From assembly GCA_000934665.2 (NCBI GenBank), contig KZ538145.1, positions 1 through 64,000 of the forward strand: DNA of 64,000 bases. Direction: 5' to 3'. The notes under the pieces are model-generated. The model saw only the letters and a program-made list of their open reading frames with translations, was not told the DNA's origin and ran no database searches. Position numbers and translations under genes: made by a program. The DNA comes from Catajapyx aquilonaris (Eukaryota). Shown here one piece after another: positions 4,036 through 47,771 of the stretch (positions are counted from its first letter, which is position 1; each line of letters starts with the position of its first letter).

Positions 4036-4069
4036 ACTTACCTAGAAGGAAGAAAAAAGGGGTTTAGTA
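4036..4069 (-). other. Candidate recursive splice site (ratchet point), junction 4042|4041
   Basis: The minus strand reads TACTAAACCCCTTTTTTCTTCCTTCTAG|GTAAGT. It has a branch-like TACTAA, 18 consecutive pyrimidines and TAG, immediately followed by a perfect donor. It is on the same strand as the CELF exon. Confidence 0.7.
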
Positions 4070-8021: not shown

Positions 8022-8055
8022 NNNNNNNNNNNNNNNNNNNNNNNNNNNNNNNNNN
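8022..8055. other. Assembly gap between poly-C and poly-G tracts
   Basis: A run of N is flanked by a C tract on the left and a G tract on the right. Confidence 0.95.
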
Positions 8056-9248: not shown

Positions 9249-9294
9249 NNNNNNNNNNNNNNNNNNNNNNNNNNNNNNNNNNNNNNNNNNNNNN
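9249..9294. other. Assembly gap within a poly-G tract
   Basis: A run of N is flanked by G homopolymers. Confidence 0.95.
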
Positions 9295-21906: not shown

Positions 21907-21912
21907 ACTTAC
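21907..21912 (-). other. 5' splice site (GTAAGT) ending the CELF exon; starts an intron longer than 21.9 kb
   Basis: Forward acttac at 21907-21912 reads GTAAGT on the minus strand, directly after ...CCC ATC AA. I found no exon encoding IKMFVGQ or GCCFV between 1 and 21900. Confidence 0.85.
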
Positions 21913-22214
21913 TTGATGGGACTGAGAGGCCCGGTCTCAGCGTCGCTGCTGCTGCTCTGACTATCGTTGGGACTAGCGGAGCGGACATCGCAGCTGTTGT
22001 CTGCCCCGTTGTTCAAGGGCGGGCTATTGTTGTTATTCTGGTGATGATGATGATGATGTTGGTGTTGGTGGTGATGCAGCGTCGGGTAGTGGTTGTTCCG
22101 GTTCTTCGCCGTGGCCAACTTGGACGGCGAGCCGGTGGTCGTCGCGACACTGTCCCCACCAGGAGAGATCTTCCCAGCCAGCGCGTTTAGAGAGTTCAGC
22201 ATCTTCAGGCTCAT
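21913..22214 (-). CDS. bru1: First coding exon (N-terminal low-complexity region, 100 codons + 2 nt) of a CELF1/2-family RNA-binding protein (Bruno/arrest ortholog); the RRM exons lie outside the window
   Basis: The ORF reads MSLKMLNSLNALAGKISP...HHHQHQHHHHHHQNNNN...ETGPLSPIK, and the ATG is in an ACAATG context. The frame ends exactly at a consensus donor (ATC AA|GTAAGT, phase 2). MLNSLNALAGKISP matches my recollection of arthropod CELF1/2/Bruno N-termini, where ...KEQPDxDxIKMFVGQ (RRM1) follows. The family assignment is from memory, not from a search. Confidence 0.75.
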
Positions 22215-22467
22215 TGTCCGTCCCAGATGCCCCCTAACTGTACGAGTAGGACACTGCGGGTAACACTGTCAAGGGGCCAGCACGTGCGGCCTGAGAACCG
22301 ATCGGCTGTGCAGCCAAACGCAGTCTGCCGGCCCCCCACTACTGGCCATCCGCCCCTTGGCACACCCCCCTATCAGTTTGCACTTTGCCCCGCAACCAAA
22401 CACGTCATATACTCCTCATACACGCACTTCCACTACAAGAAGGTTCCAACTTGCAGTCAGCAAAAGC

Positions 22468-22495
22468 CTGCGGGGGAGGAAGGACAACAAGTCAG
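22468..22495 (-). other. Branch point and 3' splice site upstream of the CELF start codon (defines exon 21913-22467 with about 253 nt of 5' UTR)
   Basis: The minus strand reads CTGACTTGTTGTCCTTCCTCCCCCGCAG|GC. It has a CTGAC branch motif (A at -25), a pyrimidine tract and CAG, with no intervening AG. Confidence 0.65.
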
Positions 22496-22797: not shown

Positions 22798-25700
22798 GCA
22801 CAAATGCCAGCCTCACTAATATCATTAGTTTCATTCACTACTACACACTCGATTTGCATCGCTCACTCACTACACACTTTTGCACTCACAAAGTGCACCC
22901 CTCCCGATTTCACTTACGTAATGAACACTTTGGGTGGGTGGGTCGGAGGGTGGGTGGGTGGGTGGGTGAGAGCCAATCGGTGCTATTGGAAGGCGACGTG
23001 TAATTAATTCGGGTGTGCGTTGCGGCTCACTTTTGGAACCCTGTTTGACTTCATTATGCACATGTTCCTTTGCGCCCCTCAAAATGCGTGTGCCCTTTCA
23101 TGTTCCGGCCAGCATATCGTTCCATCTGACGGAATACCGGCAACTGATGCATTCATCGCCATCTTCTACCTGGAGGTTCAATTGATATTTTTATTACGGT
23201 TGTGCACGCAATTCACGCGTCTTATTCAATTGCCTCTCCGTCGGATTTTCACTAGTTCGAATCATGTCATTTGTACAGTAACGTTCAGTTTTTTTTTGTC
23301 GAATGTACCTGCGGTCCCATTTGATTTTTCGGATCCGGGTCGTACCTTGTGTGTAGATGACATGAAGCAGGTGCAGTGAACAGACGCGTTATCAGCCACT
23401 GATTAGTTCAAGGTTATGATGGCGCTTTTGTTTTGCTCTCTCCTTCACTCACGGACACAAACCAATGCGGTTCAAAATGAACTTCCGTTACAACAGTGCC
23501 GGTCCCATCTAAACATTGACTAGAGTGCAGATCAACAACATTTGGTAATAACCAGCATCAGTATGTATGTGGGAACAGTGGTCGTGATGGTGAGCGTATC
23601 GACCCGTATTCGGACAGATTTGGAGGATGGAAGGATGACATGGGGGATTGAGGTACTACTGGCCAAAAAATGTGGCTAGTGGAAACACTACTATCGAACA
23701 TGGCGTTACATGATGCGCTTTTCTTGAACCAGCCAAGGTGTGTTATCTCCCAGGGACAGGTTGACATGAGGGCGATAATAGTGGCACTATCGACAACACA
23801 TGCCCCGTGCACACTGATAGTACGATGTACAATAGGGGAAAGATAATTCTGGCAACCATGCACTGCAAACAAAGGTGTAATCAGTGTTTGTCCAAACAAA
23901 TTTTTCCTTCTCAACCTGGCGCCAAGTCTGCAACTCTGGGCCGCATTGATTCCGTGAGCCCAAGCACCAGAAAGCACACGCATAATATAGGCGCACGCAC
24001 CTCCGACACTCGTCCAATAATCCCTTGTACATCTATCCCGTGAGTATACAGCAGCCTAAACCCTGGTGCTGTGGAGTTTCTCCAGCAGTGAGGAAAAGCA
24101 TGTTGGAATTGCTTCCCACGGCGAAAATTATTAATTCGACCTCCCGCCCGCTGTTCACGTGCATGAGGCTTAACTTCGACTCTCAACTGAAGAAAATCCA
24201 CTGGAATATGCAGACTTTGTTGCCTTCCAGCTGTATACGCACTTGCAACTTTTGTCTTGCTCTTTTGATATCACCATGACAATCATGTGCAGGGAGTACA
24301 AAAGTGTTATTCAACCATGCTGGCCATATTTGGATATTAATATCCAGGGAATTACCTGTGTAGGGTTCAATCGCATTAAAGAGCTGTTGGCAATGTAGGC
24401 CACTTTTTGCCACACTACTGTAACTACTATAATGCAGGCCATTTCAATACAGGCACGATATTCATTTTTAACTAGGAGAGAGTTTCTAAAAAGAGCAACG
24501 TTGTTTAACATGGATATGACAACTTGGTAGGCTACAAAGCAAAATTATACAGCCTACTCGACGTGGGAGGGAAAATGCGCCTGTATCAGCATAATAGCAC
24601 AAGACAGTATGAAATCAATATTACAATATGTAGGCGAAAATTCTAAGCCATATGCAGTCGGTGGCACAAAAACAGCGGTTTATTATTTTACCATTCGCAT
24701 CAAATAGGCATCACACATCACTCTGCAATTTTAACACCTGCAAGCCACGCCCCTGTTAATGGTTCCTGCACTTCAGGTACCAGTACATGAAACGCTGTCT
24801 TAACCAACTTAAATAAATTGCAGCTCTCGACGCGGCTAATTTATATATTTAAGCGGTTACTCTAGTTGACGTAACCAGTAAAATATGCATCATGCCTTTG
24901 TCACATCCACTGACCACACTTCGGAGGATGCCACGTGATGGATTTTTCTCTTCCGCTATTTCCGCAGCAGCCAGCAAATGTAAGACATTACATAATGACT
25001 TACTCTTATCATAATAAGCAAATTCTATTGGAGCACTTGTTTATTATGATAGTGCTCCACATTTCCATGCCATCTTACTCCGGTGCCAGGCGCCTATACC
25101 TGCTTGCATGTGACGTAAGATAGCCCAAAGAGGATCACGCCAAGTGTACAGTGCAGTAAATCTCCAACACACCTTCAGCACTTCCTTTGTAGTAGCTTCA
25201 ATAAGGAAATATCCTCTTATATGAAGAGGGGAACAGTACGTACTGTACTGCAGGTGGTTTCGATTGGATTTACACCCATGGCAGAAAATCCCCTAGCAGA
25301 GCACACGTGCCTAGATTCCCGTCGATATATTCCCACTGACCACTTTCAAAGCCCGAATAAAAATTCATCTGACGCAACAATTACCAAACCAAAGTACCTG
25401 TCTGTCTCTGCCCAACTTTCACTCCCAGAGAACTCCATCCCATTCGGGGGCATCCCGGCTTGAAAACCCTTGAGCTAGGCTACACCGCAGCACTTTTCAA
25501 CCTCCCCACCTCCTCCACCTCCTACCCACTCCACCTCTCCCCAATTCATGCACACAAATTGATACTCCGGAAAATCTCGACGCACCGGGACAACGGTGGC
25601 GTATGCAAATTTCGAGAGTGTAAGTCTTGCTGACCCACTTGCCCGCTGAAAGCAAACATACTAAGTGGGTTTGGCGAAAACCGGAGCGGGCAATCAAGCC

Positions 25701-40972: not shown

Positions 40973-40978
<6 letters not shown>

Positions 40979-41032
<54 letters not shown>
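40979..41032 (+). repeat. Microsatellite (CT)27
   Basis: Perfect dinucleotide array. Confidence 0.97.
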
Positions 41033-41039
<7 letters not shown>

Positions 41040-41988
41040 GGCTATCTCTCCCTGAACATTAAGTTCATTACATCACTTGGGAAGTTTCACACACCGGCTG
41101 CGCTTAAAAGCGGAATAGTGTAAGGTCGATAGGAAACTAGAGGCAGTTGGACCGCAACGGAATGAATCCCTTCCAAAAGCCAGTGCCATCAAATGTCCAA
41201 AAGTGCTCTCCGGCAGCCAACGCCTTTTGCTGCTCTTCCTTCCTTTAACGCCAAACAAGGATTTTTCCCTAATCACACCAGAAGGAAACCTCGTTTTCCT
41301 CCGGCTTCGGAAAAGCAGCCTGGCCCCTGCCATCCACTCATCCCTGCATCACAAAAGAGACACTTGGGTTGCGCGGTATCCAGGAGGAACTTTCCCAACG
41401 TCTTATTACTAGGAGGCCTGCAGAGAGTGGGGACTGTTGAGTATCCCTGAGCTTAACTGTTTGAAAACTGTTTTTATTGCAAAACTTTTGAGCAACCTTG
41501 TGTGAAAACAGAGGCACAAAGATAATTCCTGCTCATGTGCCCGAAATCTCATCTGTCACGTAGATGAACGGACAGGTCTTGCATCCAGCCTGAGGATAGG
41601 CAAGCATTAGACAGATCCGAATTCGCAGGTTAGAGCTGTTTTAGTGCCCAGGAAGACAGCACTCTGGTGTCCCGTCTCCTGAGCATAATCGGTGATAAAC
41701 GAAGACAAGCGTGAGCTACGACTTGCAGCCGTTGACACCATCACACGCTGCAATAAAGCCCCATTGCCCAACCTGCACATCTCAACCTTCCTCTATCTGC
41801 AGCTGCCCACTAAACTCGCCTATCATTTCTATCCCGCTGCGGGCAAGCTTTGGGGGGAAAAAACTGGTGCCTTTGCCATACCGCTAACTGAGCTGCATTA
41901 GAGTGTATGATAGCGCTGGTCTTAATAGAATCCAAGTGGACCGCGCGATAAGGTGTGTTTTTTTTTCCAGGGAGGAAATGCATCCTAC

Positions 41989-42061
41989 CTGTTAGCACGG
42001 TGGGTAGCCAGGTATAACCCGCGAGGATGATAGACACACACCCCACCAAGTTCTCACTCAC
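41989..42061 (-). other. Putative 73-nt cryptic RS-exon downstream of the 42061 ratchet point
   Basis: The segment runs from the acceptor at 42062 to a donor-like CAG|GTAGGA (forward tcctac, 41983-41988). Confidence 0.4.
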
Positions 42062-42086
42062 CTGCAAAGAGAGAATGACGTTAGAA
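42056..42086 (-). other. Candidate recursive splice site (ratchet point), junction 42062|42061
   Basis: The minus strand reads TTCTAACGTCATTCTCTCTTTGCAG|GTGAGT. It has a CTAAC branch motif (A at -20), a pyrimidine tract and CAG abutting a perfect donor, with no AG between branch and acceptor. Confidence 0.7.
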
Positions 42087-44100
42087 TGTGCTCGTAAAAT
42101 ACATGAGCTTCAGAAAAGCTAATAAAGCAACACCAATATAGCGCCATAAGGATTTACTGCTGGACATAAAAGCCGCCAAAATGCGGTTTCAAAATGAACG
42201 CCGATGATATCTATCTATACCGACGGCCCAGAAATTCGGTTTATCGCCCGCACATGGCCCCGGGGGCAATGCAGCCCCTGGGCTCTTTCACCCTCAAGAA
42301 TCTGCCGCTTGCTAATTCGGCTACTTGGCTATTTCCAGTTGATCCTGCGATAGGCTATGACGCCCAACATATCTACCCTCTCGCTGTATATGCTTCCCTT
42401 GTGACCAGAGACCGTTTATATCCTAGAGACCATCTAAGCAACACGCTTCAAAAATTATTAATACCGGTTGCATCTTCTCAAAATGCTGACTCTTCCCAAC
42501 TGTTTCACTCGATACTATTGCAAAAAAACGGAGGTCGTTGAAACAAAAGTGTTTTTGCACCCTAGGTGAAAAACACTGCCATAGACAAGGTTTTTTTTGC
42601 CACCTCGATTTCCGTCCTGCATGGTATTGCAGCCATCTGAGCGCGATCACCTGCATTCAATAGACTGGAACACATTTAGAATTCGTGCGTGTTGAACAAG
42701 ACGCCTAACAATCGCGACAAGGCCCGTAATATAAAACGACGCTGCGACCCAAAAGTGTTCCCTAGCGATATTCGCGAGAAGTGGAAGAGTTGGCATCTGC
42801 AGTTCCATCTGGAGGAGTAGTTCCAGATCGGACCTAAAAAAAAGAAGAGGAAAAAAAAGAAGGTCCCGCCCCAGGTTAGGAAAAGAAGAGACTTTCTTCA
42901 GACTGCATGGAAGCTTAGGCGCGAGGAAATGAAATTCGTGTCTGGAGCGACCTGGAATTAGGCTGCGCAGATATACTCGGCCATTCTCCATCAGCACGGC
43001 CCCCGAATAATATCATCTGAGAGGGAAGTTGGGTGGGTGGGTTGGGTGGAATCGTGCTGCGATTGGAGCCAGGCAGACAAGAGAGCTAGGAGGCTCTTCT
43101 CTTCTGTGCTCTTCCTCGCCTCGAGGGATGTGGTGCGTGCCACCAACCGATTGCCACCAATCCACTTTTTTCCCCCTTCTTTTGTCGCCGCTTCCGTGAG
43201 GACACTGCCACCAGCCTGCTGATTGATAAGCGCACTAAAGCTCCGAGAGAGGGAGACTCTGGATCAGAAGGATCGCTTCTCCAGAAAATTACTACCTTCA
43301 CCTACTATACTGCACGACTAGGCTCTTCCACAGGTTATAAAAACAACTCTGCTTAGAGATGGCGGCACGTGCAAGCCTCTGCGGTTGTGCTGCCACCTAT
43401 CGACTAAGCTCTTCATATTTCATACTGCTTTCTAATTATATGAATTAATAACAGAAATACGTGGTGGGTTATAGCTATAGCAGTATAGTCTGAAGTAGCT
43501 AGTTAGTTCCCTGGGCAATAAACACATTTGACTTAGCATATTCAGTACATAGTCCACCGAAATAACGTTAGGGAACAAGCAGAATTCCCCCTCTCCCGCA
43601 AAGCTAGGAGGAATGCCCTAACCAGATTATACGCCGGCAAAGTTTTGCCATTCCTTTGCTCTCATGGATACTAAATGCACATAGTGTAACAACAATAATC
43701 GGGAGGGAACAGAAGGGACAATGTTTACAGCAAGCGCCTCCTATTCTCTTCTTTATAAGGATTTAATGACCTCTTAGAGTCCCTCCGCAGAGGCCATTTA
43801 CCACGCTCTGCAATTGCACTGATTGCAGGGGCCCGCCTGAGAAAATATGATCAAAGTCTCCACCCTCGTACCGGCTGTGGGACGCATAAAAGTTACAATG
43901 TGAGCAGAAGTTACTTCGCCTTCTTCCGACACACATTAAATATTTTCTCCCAACTTGGCTGGGAATTTCTCTGCCGCCACATTTCTTCACAATTGTGACT
44001 CAAAGAATACGTTGCACTTTAATGTAGGGTACTGTATACAGCGCAACAACAAATTGTCGTACTTCAGTCAAGTTGACATCCGGCAGAATTTTCGATTCAG

Positions 44101-44539
44101 GGGGTGGATTCATCAAATGTCGTAAGTCAAATTTTCGTCGTAACCGGTAGTAACTCTAGTCTATATAAATAAAGCCGTTTGTGAGTCTGTCTGTCTGTTT
44201 GTCCGCCTGCCAACAGTCATTTGCCTGCCATCTGTGCTCCACCCTCAAGCCGGGAGAGGATGGAGGTGTTGGGGGTTGACTACAGATGGCAGGCAAATGA
44301 CGGTTGCCGTTATACAGGCGGGAGAGGTTGAAGGTGGAGTAGCAGGACCACATATGGCAATGGTGGGCGGACACACAGAAAGACAGACAGTTGACGGGGC
44401 TACTGGCAGGTGTTTTCCCTTCATTCATTTCTTCCCGGGCAACGCCGGGTGCCGCAGCTAGTTACTAATAATTAACTAACTATGGTTACGACCGGTTATG
44501 ACGAAAATTTGACTTACGACATTTTGATGAATCCACCCC
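44101..44539. mobile_element. PIF/Harbinger-like palindromic MITE (137 bp when empty) interrupted by a Helitron
   Basis: The ~54-bp TIRs GGGGTGGATTCATCAAATGTCGTAAGTCAAATTTTCGTCGTAACCGG... (44101-44154) and 44485-44539 differ by 2 substitutions and 1 indel. A 3-bp TSD, CAG, lies at 44098-44100 and 44540-44542. Confidence 0.85.
44160..44461 (+). mobile_element. Non-autonomous Helitron (~302 bp)
   Basis: It has a 5' TCTATATAAATAAA, a (TCTG)n microsatellite near the 5' end, a 3' GC hairpin CCCGG-GCAACG-CCGGG (44434-44449) and a CTAG terminus followed by T. There is no TSD. Removing it restores the host MITE palindrome. Confidence 0.85.
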
Positions 44540-45067: not shown

Positions 45068-47287
45068 TATAGTTTCAGAATAGCTTCGTTAACTCCTAGA
45101 ACCGGAAAAGTACTACAGCCGTGATAAACCGACTGACAGTTTTTTTTAAAGAAACTGATACTCTTCACGCCTGAGTTGCCTGAGGTGACAAGATATTACA
45201 TCCCAAAATTCTGCCTTTCCAACCTACATGTATAAAATATTGGTTTTTCAATCTAAAATTTTCCGATCAAAATAATCCTCGGGCTTCAACAATAATTGTA
45301 TTAAGCTCCCAAAAATTGGAAACATTGTGCTCCAAGCCCGTAATATTCATGATAATGAGACTTTTTTTTTGCCACGAAATCGGAGCAGGCAGCAATTAGG
45401 TACGAAAACAGTATCAATACTCTGAAAATGCGGCAAGTAATGTAATACTCTCTGTTTATTTAAAAAAAAAAAGAGGCAAATAAGCAAAATTTGCGAAGCA
45501 ATTTGCGTTGGCTTCCTTGTCGGACCAGACGGTATATCAGATTATTTATTAGTGGTGCGCTGAAGTGAAGCACATAACTAACAGAGTACAACGCAGAGAG
45601 TGACCTGTACACCGCCGGTCTTCATTTGCCAACAAGGCCTTGTTATTGTTATACCAACATGCTGCAAAGTGACTAAAAGCAGAGAGGGTACAAAATAATA
45701 GAAAGGGACATGGTGAAGTAACTCTGGTCGCTCTGATGTAAACAGGCGTATTTGGTGCGTCGTCTCCATTAGTTTAGTGGAGTTTGAGTAGGTCCTATAG
45801 AGTGGTATATATATATATATAGGAAGGCAGAGAGCAAAGTGCAGCATCGCATCACATGGCAAGGGGTGGGGCCAGCAGCTAGACACCTTCGGGCTTTTCC
45901 CAGTTTCCGGATTGCAAAGTGTTGTAAGCATGTCAGCTTGTCAGAATGCAAATGTTACTGGAAAGGGGGGGGGAGGTCTAGGCAAGAGACAAATGAGAGG
46001 GGCAGTGTGGGCCACATTCCTGCAAGCCCAGGATTTGCGCCCAACTTGCAGCTTGCGGCCTGCCACCGACTAAATGAACCGCATTTCTCCTCCGGGACGT
46101 CATCCGGAAACTAACTAATGCACTCCTTACTCTGCTTCTCACTCCTGTCACTTATGCCACGACTCATAGTCACCACCCTCCTATAACACTTGTTTACCTA
46201 CTCGCCCAAGACTCTTTCCAAGTTGCTCGTTAGTGCCGTCTATTCACTTTTCGACAACTTGGCAACTTCCCACCATAAACCAGGTTAATAAATATCCTAA
46301 CGTCTATCATACTGCCAGGCAGAATTTCTGTTCTTATCTTAGAATTCCTTATAGAATTCCTAGATTCCGATACGAGCTTGCAATCCAAGCCTGGGTGGCT
46401 AAAACCGGGTGCTTGAGCCCAAGTGGATCCAAGTGGGGCCGAGCTAGCAAATGGATGAGCCAATACCGTGCAGCCAGGGAAGTCCTAATCCAAAGTCCCC
46501 CCCCCCCCCCCCCCCCCCCCCCCNAGAGAAAACCTTTCCTTTCCTTACCACCCCCAAGCCCTCCTTCCCTCTACAATATCCGGCCACAAGTTTTCGATTG
46601 AAACCAAACCGCGCATTACAAAGTCTCATTTCTCCGCGACAAGGAACATCCGCAGGACTCTGAATCTCCTTCCCCACGTTTTCTCCAGGGGATTTCTGGG
46701 GCCTTCCCTCCCTACCTCCCTCCTTGCTCCACCCACCCCCTTGGTGTTTACTGGGCCGCGCCATCCAAACTCTCAATTCCGCTTCTTCCTCCAGACTACT
46801 AACCACACAGCAAAAATACCAACCAGGAAAACTTCCTCAGACTGCCTGTATAGACAACCTTTAGTGTATAGTGTGAACCAAAACTCGGGGGGACCAGAGT
46901 GGCTCTAAAAGCGGATTTGAAGGCTACTTCTCACACACTAGAGGGTATTCAGTTGAAAAAGTTTAGTGGAAGGTCTCAATGCCATAGGTCACTCAAAATG
47001 TTTCTTTTCAACTTGGCTTACATGGACCAACGAATATGTTGCAGGGATGTGACTTGACTGGAATAATGTCGTGGGTTTACAAGTGAAATCCCCACTAGTC
47101 CACAAAATAATGCAATTTCTTAACACGCTTGCTGGCTCATTATGAATCTTTCGGATTATGGACTATGGACTTCATCAGGCGATACAAGATTAACCCAGAT
47201 ATGCCAGAATAATTTTTTGTTTTACATTTTAAATATTTTATGAGCAAATGAAGAACTTACCTAATTACTAAAAATCTAACAATTGTA

Positions 47288-47759
47288 CTATCGGGCGCAA
47301 TTAGTTCCGGCCACTTTTTCCTGGTCTTGAAGCAACCCTTCCCACAGGCCCCAAGGTGTACCTGTCTTCAATAAGCTGTGCGGTCGGAAGTAGTTGTTTT
47401 TACTGTAACTGTGGGGACTTTCACTCATCTGTGGGGACATTTTCCCCACTTGCGGGGAAGTTTACAGTCCCCACAAGAAAATTGCGGGTGTGCTTTTGCA
47501 GTAGTGGGGACAAGTCCCCACTATTTCCAGTTGTAGGGTTTTAGAAAAGTCCATTTTTCTCAGCCTAGATTACGTAGGGTAGGGTAGGTTATGTAGGGCA
47601 GGGTAGGGTAGGTTAGGTTCGTTAACACTAGCTTTGAAAAGTTGTCCTTTTCACGTCCCCACACCTAATAGGCCGCAGGGAGTGTGTGAGGAGGTCTGTG
47701 TGTGTGAATGGTTGCTTCAAGACCAGGATAAAGTGGCCGGAACTAATTGAACCCGATAG
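47288..47759. mobile_element. Tc1/mariner-type MITE, 472 bp
   Basis: The 50-bp TIRs (47288-47337 and 47710-47759) are 47/50 identical, with a TA TSD on both sides. The interior has GTGGGGAC/GTCCCCAC repeats and a (TAGGG/TAGGT)n tract. Confidence 0.9.
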
Positions 47760-47771
47760 TACAAGGCATAT

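Follow-up and report, generated by a model that had tools for sequence, protein, structure and literature searches.

A candidate Drosophila-type ratchet point, with a putative 73-nt cryptic exon, upstream of a start-codon exon in Catajapyx aquilonaris

Introduction

The ratchet points of Drosophila, as described by Duff et al. (10.1101/006163), are 3′ splice sites fused to 5′ splice sites and accompanied by a prominent pyrimidine tract, and 196 of 197 of them carry TT at positions -6/-5, against 44% of ordinary introns (10.1101/006163). Fly recursive segments are typically ~9-15 kb in length, with an enrichment of recursive sites among first introns (Pai 2018; PMC6110457). The cryptic RS-exons of flies measure ~50 nt, and in the usual case it is the regenerated donor that wins over theirs; where the regenerated donor is strong, the cryptic exon is mostly skipped, and expressed RS-exons are described for Ubx, msi and ps (Joseph et al., 2021; PMC8605326).

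The ratchet point of Bx (Beadex) lies in a ~31-kb 5′-UTR intron of the isoform made from a distal promoter, and the Bx isoforms, the splicing intermediates and the effects of mutating the donor have been shown experimentally (PMC8605326). In bruno-3, a CELF gene of Drosophila, exon 1 consists of UTR only and translation starts in exon 2, and Kandul and Noor (2009; PMC2767349) described a ‘nonsense’ exon, 4a, within an intron of 36-41 kb; it has conserved splice sites on either side, which they ascribed to recursive splicing. The recursive sites of vertebrates have the form YAG/GT (a slash marks the splice junction here and below), and the contest between the regenerated and a downstream donor leads to a binary decision between inclusion and skipping (Sibley et al., 2015, via PMC5126111); fly and human recursive sites differ in composition (PMC5126111).

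Here we analyse a stretch of 64,000 nt of C. aquilonaris DNA (GenBank assembly GCA_000934665.2, contig KZ538145.1, positions 1 to 64,000), referred to as the window, in which a reading of the letters had predicted a minus-strand recursive site near 42 kb together with a 73-nt RS-exon, placed in an intron upstream of the start-codon exon of a CELF gene.

Results

Anatomy of the fused splice site at 42061

The window is almost entirely non-coding, with a GC content of ~47% and a CpG observed/expected ratio of 0.74, and no Rfam family was found in it. It contains 99 N's, single or in short runs (for example at 8022-8055, 9249-9294 and 46524), and those that we looked at sit inside long G or C homopolymers, such as the one beside the C27 run of 46497-46523, hinting at a problem of assembly or sequencing in such stretches. 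Runs of at least seven C (27) or G (31) are common.

Each of the elements named in the original prediction (TTCTAAC with an A at -20, GCAG/GTGAGT, the overlapping GTGAGA and the downstream CAG/GTAGGA) was present on the minus strand, and the coordinates 41983-42086 proved exact (Table 1). CTAAC is the branch consensus, and the interval between TTCTAAC and the acceptor contains no AG when read on the minus strand. The tract and acceptor, TTCTCTCTTTGCAG, end at 42062, with the acceptor AG at 42063-42062, and the minus-strand reading across the site is ...CACATTCTAACGTCATTCTCTCTTTGCAG/GTGAGTGAGAAC... It can be seen that CAG/GTGAGT (42064-42056, minus) matches MAG/GTRAGT at 9/9 positions, and sites of this quality occur only twice on the minus strand of the window and not at all on the plus strand. 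The overlapping GTGAGA pairs weakly with U1 (-4.6 kcal/mol in a crude U1 pairing model). The 42061 site is absent from every repeat found within the window.

Table 1. Features on and around the candidate ratchet point, with coordinates of the window
Feature	Coordinates	Strand	Remarks
Branch-point-like TTCTAAC	42080..42086	minus	A at 42081 is the candidate branch point (position -20)
Pyrimidine tract and acceptor GTCATTCTCTCTTTGCAG	42062..42079	minus	14/18 pyrimidines at -20..-3; TT at -6/-5
Regenerated donor GTGAGT	42056..42061	minus	abuts the acceptor AG; ratchet point proper at 42062/42061
Overlapping second donor-like GTGAGA	42052..42057	minus	4 nt downstream of GTGAGT
Candidate cryptic RS-exon, 73 nt	41989..42061	minus	no ATG; one open frame; length not a multiple of 3
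Candidate RS-exon donor CAG/GTAGGA	41983..41991	minus	GT at 41988-41987; 7/9 consensus, G at +5
Putative start-codon exon	21913..22467	minus	acceptor TTGTTGTCCTTCCTCCCCCGCAG/ at 22468/22467; ATG at 22214-22212
Second, stronger ratchet-type site ACTAAACCCCTTTTTTCTTCCTTCTAG/GTAAGT	4036..4068	minus	AG at 4043-4042, GT at 4041

Comparison with described recursive sites

The acceptor of the 42061 site ends in TTGCAG and thus carries TT at -6/-5, like fly sites. Scored by eye, rows 1-47 of Table S1 in Pai 2018 have TT at -6/-5 in 47/47, TTGCAG/GT in 23/47 and GTGAGT in 15/47 (PMC6110457), and two validated fly sites in that paper, ...ACAG/GTGAGTGAGTGG and ...TCTCTTTGCAG/GTAAGC, come close to the core of the 42061 site (PMC6110457). 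Since validated fly sites match it almost letter for letter, the core TCTCTTTGCAG/GTGAGTGAG can be called a textbook fly motif.

In common with the Drosophila ratchet points, then, the site has the AG/GT juxtaposition, TT at -6/-5, the TTGCAG/GTGAGT core, a pyrimidine tract and non-coding surroundings. The stretch from the junction to a downstream 5′ splice site, a candidate one here, is short in both cases (~50 nt in flies, 73 nt here). The spacing to neighbouring splice sites, at 18-20 kb, is longer than the 9-15 kb typical of flies, and the Drosophila ratchet points, unlike this candidate, have been validated experimentally. Bx is resembled in the proposed position within a 5′-UTR intron that only transcripts with a distal start would contain, in a cryptic exon that would be neutral for the protein and in the competition of two donors, although the distal start site is hypothetical here. 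The likeness to bruno-3 would lie in a putative cryptic non-coding exon within a very long intron, and the layout of a UTR exon 1 followed by a start-codon exon 2 is the one that the original prediction had assumed; however, exon 4a measures 454 nt and has coding exons 4 and 5 as its neighbours, whereas the candidate described here would lie upstream of the start codon. If the host gene were a bruno orthologue, the predicted arrangement would thus have good precedent. As in vertebrates, two donors would compete and the choice between inclusion and skipping could depend on the upstream exon. However, the 42061 site has the fly-type signature of TT, long pyrimidine tract and GTRAGT, and vertebrate RS-exons usually carry premature stops in coding regions, whereas the candidate here would sit in a 5′ UTR.

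The fused acceptor and donor are far beyond chance

Ratchet-type sites were counted under a rule that requires AG/GTRAGT, a pyrimidine content of 70% or more over -20..-3, and TT at -6/-5. The TT and GTRAGT elements of this rule come from the fly literature and are carried over to this window by analogy. Across the two strands of the window (128 kb) only two sites passed, 42061 and 4041, each of them on the minus strand; the plus strand has none. Minus strands were simulated 400 times for each of the Markov orders 1, 3 and 5, and gave on average 0.01-0.0125 sites per strand under the TT rule, rising to 0.09-0.145 when that rule was dropped, figures that are somewhat generous because the 70% pyrimidine threshold was fixed after the site had been seen. 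Two or more sites under the TT rule arose in 0/400 simulations at each order. On a graded score the two minus-strand sites reached 31 and 27, with the 4041 site the higher, against a maximum of 21 among the 197 AGGT sites of the plus strand. We conclude that the fused acceptor/donor at 42061 is far beyond chance, and that the ratchet-point motif is significant because sites passing the rule are so rare in the simulations.

A second site at 4041 and other look-alikes

The site at 4041 has 18/18 pyrimidines, TT at -6/-5 and the highest combined score in the window, and the tract of the 42061 site, with its 14/18 pyrimidines somewhat interrupted, is weaker. The 4041 site lies 17.9 kb downstream of the donor of the start-codon exon, and the best donors beyond it are found only at +107 (6/9) and +127 (7/9). 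Judged by position, the 42061 and 4041 sites together would divide the introns on either side of the start-codon exon into segments of comparable length.

A further fused site, TAATTAG/GTAAGT at 47262/47260 (minus), was rejected as a ratchet point, as it lacks TT at -6/-5 and has 10/18 pyrimidines. It stands 21 nt from one arm of an inverted-repeat pair (47283-47346 and 47701-47764; 64 nt, 92% complementary), and the pair within 47260-47764 looks like a small MITE-like element. A second inverted-repeat element, with 46-nt arms that are 91% complementary and 318 nt apart, was noted at 44115-44524. A very strong acceptor-like sequence, CTTTTTTTTCCTCTTCTTTTTTTTAG/GTCCGA, with 18/18 pyrimidines, is present at 42833-42860 of the minus strand, 772 nt upstream of the 42061 site; this could be the opening of an exon or a mere T-run. 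The sequence ‘TTCATTTTGAA..CCGCATT’ that appeared to be shared between the regions near 42.19 kb and 23.48 kb was discarded, as it gave one match at three mismatches or fewer, which is not above chance.

When metagenomes were scanned, the 24-mer core of the 42061 site gave 0 matches and a 20-mer core was found in four contigs (L001-L004), the flanks of which align to the window over only 20-29 nt; because the flanks fail to align, these contigs are not orthologues. One of them, L002, carries at 940-1080 the sequence TTTTCTCTCTTTGCAG/GTGAGT followed ~47 nt later by CGCAG/GTAAGA, which is the same architecture within unrelated flanks, and on this likeness it is possibly a recursive site with cryptic exon of another eukaryote in the metagenome.

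The downstream donor and the 73-nt piece

The downstream donor stands in the context CTAACAG/GTAGGA, 73 nt past the acceptor AG. The claim of a 73-nt RS-exon was thus right in its arithmetic, the interval 42061..41989 being 73 nt, but the donor that defines the exon does not exceed chance: when 20,000 random positions of the minus strand were examined, 11.8% had a donor of at least 7/9 with G at +5 within 30-120 nt downstream, and 6.4% had one within 30-80 nt. Because a downstream donor of that quality is common by chance, the 73-nt exon is compatible with the observations and no more, and we regard it as plausible on the layout of its splice sites and statistically not significant.

In the crude model, the pairing of U1 with the downstream donor GTAGGA amounts to -10.7 kcal/mol, and that with the regenerated donor to -5.7 kcal/mol for the intronic part alone and -12.4 if CAG precedes it. 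The winner between the two donors hinges on the end of the upstream exon, so that some isoforms may well retain the 73-nt piece. As the piece has no ATG, its inclusion in a 5′ UTR would be harmless. A (CT)33 microsatellite, (AG)n on the gene strand, occupies 40974-41039 of the plus strand, ~950 nt downstream of the candidate RS-exon.

The start-codon exon and the identity of the host gene

The one convincing coding exon of the window is the start-codon exon, which is on the same strand (minus) as both ratchet-type sites. From the ATG it comprises 100 codons and 2 bases, up to the donor ATCAA/GTAAGT with its GT at 21912, and its product is rich in His, Gln, Asn and Ser and ends in ...GPLSPI, followed by the split codon AA/. 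The strong acceptor at 22467 is the best within 3.8 kb upstream of the ATG, and the 42061 site lies 19.6 kb upstream of it on the same strand.

The assignment of the host gene to CELF found no backing in the window, which contains no RRM exon and in which the start-codon exon is without homologues. Two word-indexed searches with the 100-aa product (P0001), including one against longer proteins, returned no homologue at E<=0.01, and a 118-aa ORF had no match among proteins of near length. An exhaustive search with P0001 gave only two matches, both to very long proteins and over 17 stretches each, and these we read as low-complexity. Nothing credible was found when RNP1 and CELF-type RRM1 peptide motifs were sought in the six frames of the window. 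No Pfam family reached the cut-off in 201/308 ORFs of at least 70 aa, the start-codon exon included (135/143 on the minus strand and 66/165 on the plus strand); matches below the threshold were seen in three ORFs (DUF2300; DUF3915 and Atrophin-1; PRIMA1). RRM exons could sit beyond the window, so that their absence from it does not exclude CELF. The end of the start-codon exon, ‘...SPIK/’, presumably resembles the ‘...AIK/MFVGQ’ junction of CELF. Neither ‘bru’ nor ‘aret’ occurs in the supplements of Pai 2018, and the same is true of three FlyBase ids taken to be those of bruno genes.

Transcription above 42 kb

The minus strand has an excess of T over A of 2.6% and of G over C of 5-8%, and each third of the window shows it. 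In Drosophila introns the coding strand is described as having T>A and C>G (PMC5786239), and the skew is therefore ambiguous: T>A fits a coding minus strand but G>C opposes the pattern of fly introns. With its two components in disagreement, the skew was rejected as a sign of transcription above 42 kb. Counts of AATAAA (48 plus, 33 minus) and of donors of at least 8/9 (21 plus, 24 minus) were likewise rejected as strand indicators, neither showing a clear asymmetry.

A cluster of donor-like sequences (TTACGTAAGT, TTTGTGAGT and GTGAGTGAGC) is present at 22870-22930 of the minus strand, ~400-460 nt upstream of the acceptor of the start-codon exon, and adjoins CACCC repeats and GT repeats. From these motifs, the cluster at 22.87-22.93 kb may represent a proximal first exon or a promoter. 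Were a proximal first exon to lie there, 42 kb would fall outside the main transcript, and the site would be present only in transcripts begun at a further, distal promoter. A distal promoter or exon above 42 kb, as foreseen in the original prediction, is something that we only infer.

Discussion

On balance we lean towards the reading in which 42062/42061 (minus) is a Drosophila-type ratchet point in a long non-coding intron, upstream of the start-codon exon, a reading drawn from the letters of the locus. The anatomy of the site speaks for this part of what had been predicted, as do its strand, its resemblance to fly sites and the scarcity of such motifs; the boundaries of the RS-exon, the CELF label and the distal promoter do not share that support.

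That the motif has no function, and is a product of chance or a relic in untranscribed or antisense DNA with transcripts starting near 23 kb, we consider rather unlikely. Such a start would agree with the possible proximal first exon at 22.87-22.93 kb, the GC skew runs opposite to the fly intron rule, and there is a selection effect in that the best-looking motifs of a window are the ones that get picked. However, the whole-window simulations allow for this picking of the best site and still give P(>=1) of ~0.01 per strand, a second, independent site is present on the same strand with none on the other, and the 42061 site stands outside the repeats of the window.

The two remaining alternatives accept one half of the fused site as functional and take the other half as incidental. 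Should the acceptor be the functional half, 42061 would open an expressed alternative 5′-UTR cassette exon, present in some or most mRNAs and reaching to 41989 or to another donor, and the GTGAGT at its start would be a coincidence; the site would then belong to an ‘expressed RS-exon’ or to an ordinary exon and would be no silent ratchet point. Strong acceptor signals and a usable donor at +73 agree with this, as do the harmlessness in a 5′ UTR of a 73-nt piece without ATG and the existence of expressed RS-exons in flies (Ubx, msi and ps; PMC8605326), and the downstream donor at -10.7 kcal/mol beats the regenerated one unless the upstream exon ends well (-5.7 to -12.4). Nevertheless an ordinary exon has no need of a perfect GTGAGT directly after its AG, for which ~0.01 sites are expected per strand with the TT rule, and fly sites that have strong regenerated donors mostly skip the cryptic exon (PMC8605326), so that we hold a cassette exon to be unlikely. 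Should the donor be the functional half, 42061 would be the plain 5′ splice site of an upstream non-coding exon, either an alternative first exon beginning at most a few hundred bases away or one opened at 42833, and the tract would be a coincidence. CAG/GTGAGT does score 9/9, and the same strand bears the very strong acceptor-like CTTTTTTTTCCTCTTCTTTTTTTTAG/ 772 nt further upstream; but a plain donor requires neither a branch match at -20 nor an AG-free tract nor TT at -6/-5, and the TT rule alone cuts the chance expectation about ten-fold, from ~0.1 to 0.01. In addition, an internal exon of 772 nt would be unusually long, and the scanned ORFs of at least 70 aa from 42.1-42.9 kb, on either strand, were without a Pfam family. 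We consider this explanation very unlikely.

If 42061 is a ratchet point, U2AF and U2 would recognise TTCTAAC and TTCTCTCTTTGCAG, perhaps aided by exon definition that involves a 5′ splice site further downstream, with CAG/GTAGGA at +73 as the best candidate. The upstream exon would then be joined to 42061, so placing GTGAGT directly behind it and regenerating a 5′ splice site, and the regenerated donor would be spliced to the next acceptor, most plausibly the one at 22467, 19.6 kb away. In this last step the remaining intron would be discarded and the 73-nt cryptic exon along with it.

A more far-reaching view, built on the arrangement of these motifs and one to which we give little credence, is that this would be a conserved recursive site in a non-Drosophila invertebrate, acting as a promoter-dependent switch and, together with the 4041 site, pointing to regular processing, in steps of ~18-20 kb, of a long gene for a neural RNA-binding protein (possibly a CELF/bruno orthologue). 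A distal first exon that ends poorly would then regenerate no strong donor and the 73-nt exon would be kept in the 5′ UTR, and with other first exons the ratcheting would leave no trace in the transcript.

The 42061 site would belong to a well-described class, of interest to annotators and to those who chart recursive splicing beyond Drosophila, and would not surprise a specialist, and the understanding of the mechanism would be left unchanged, as all of the observations fit the published fly model. In gene annotation, a 73-nt cryptic exon or ratchet junctions may be taken for genuine exons or dismissed as noise. Use of the site would imply an unannotated distal promoter or 5′ exon of the host gene, and would add a recursive site, and together with 4041 a pair of them, outside D. 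melanogaster, which bears on how widely fly-type recursive splicing occurs.
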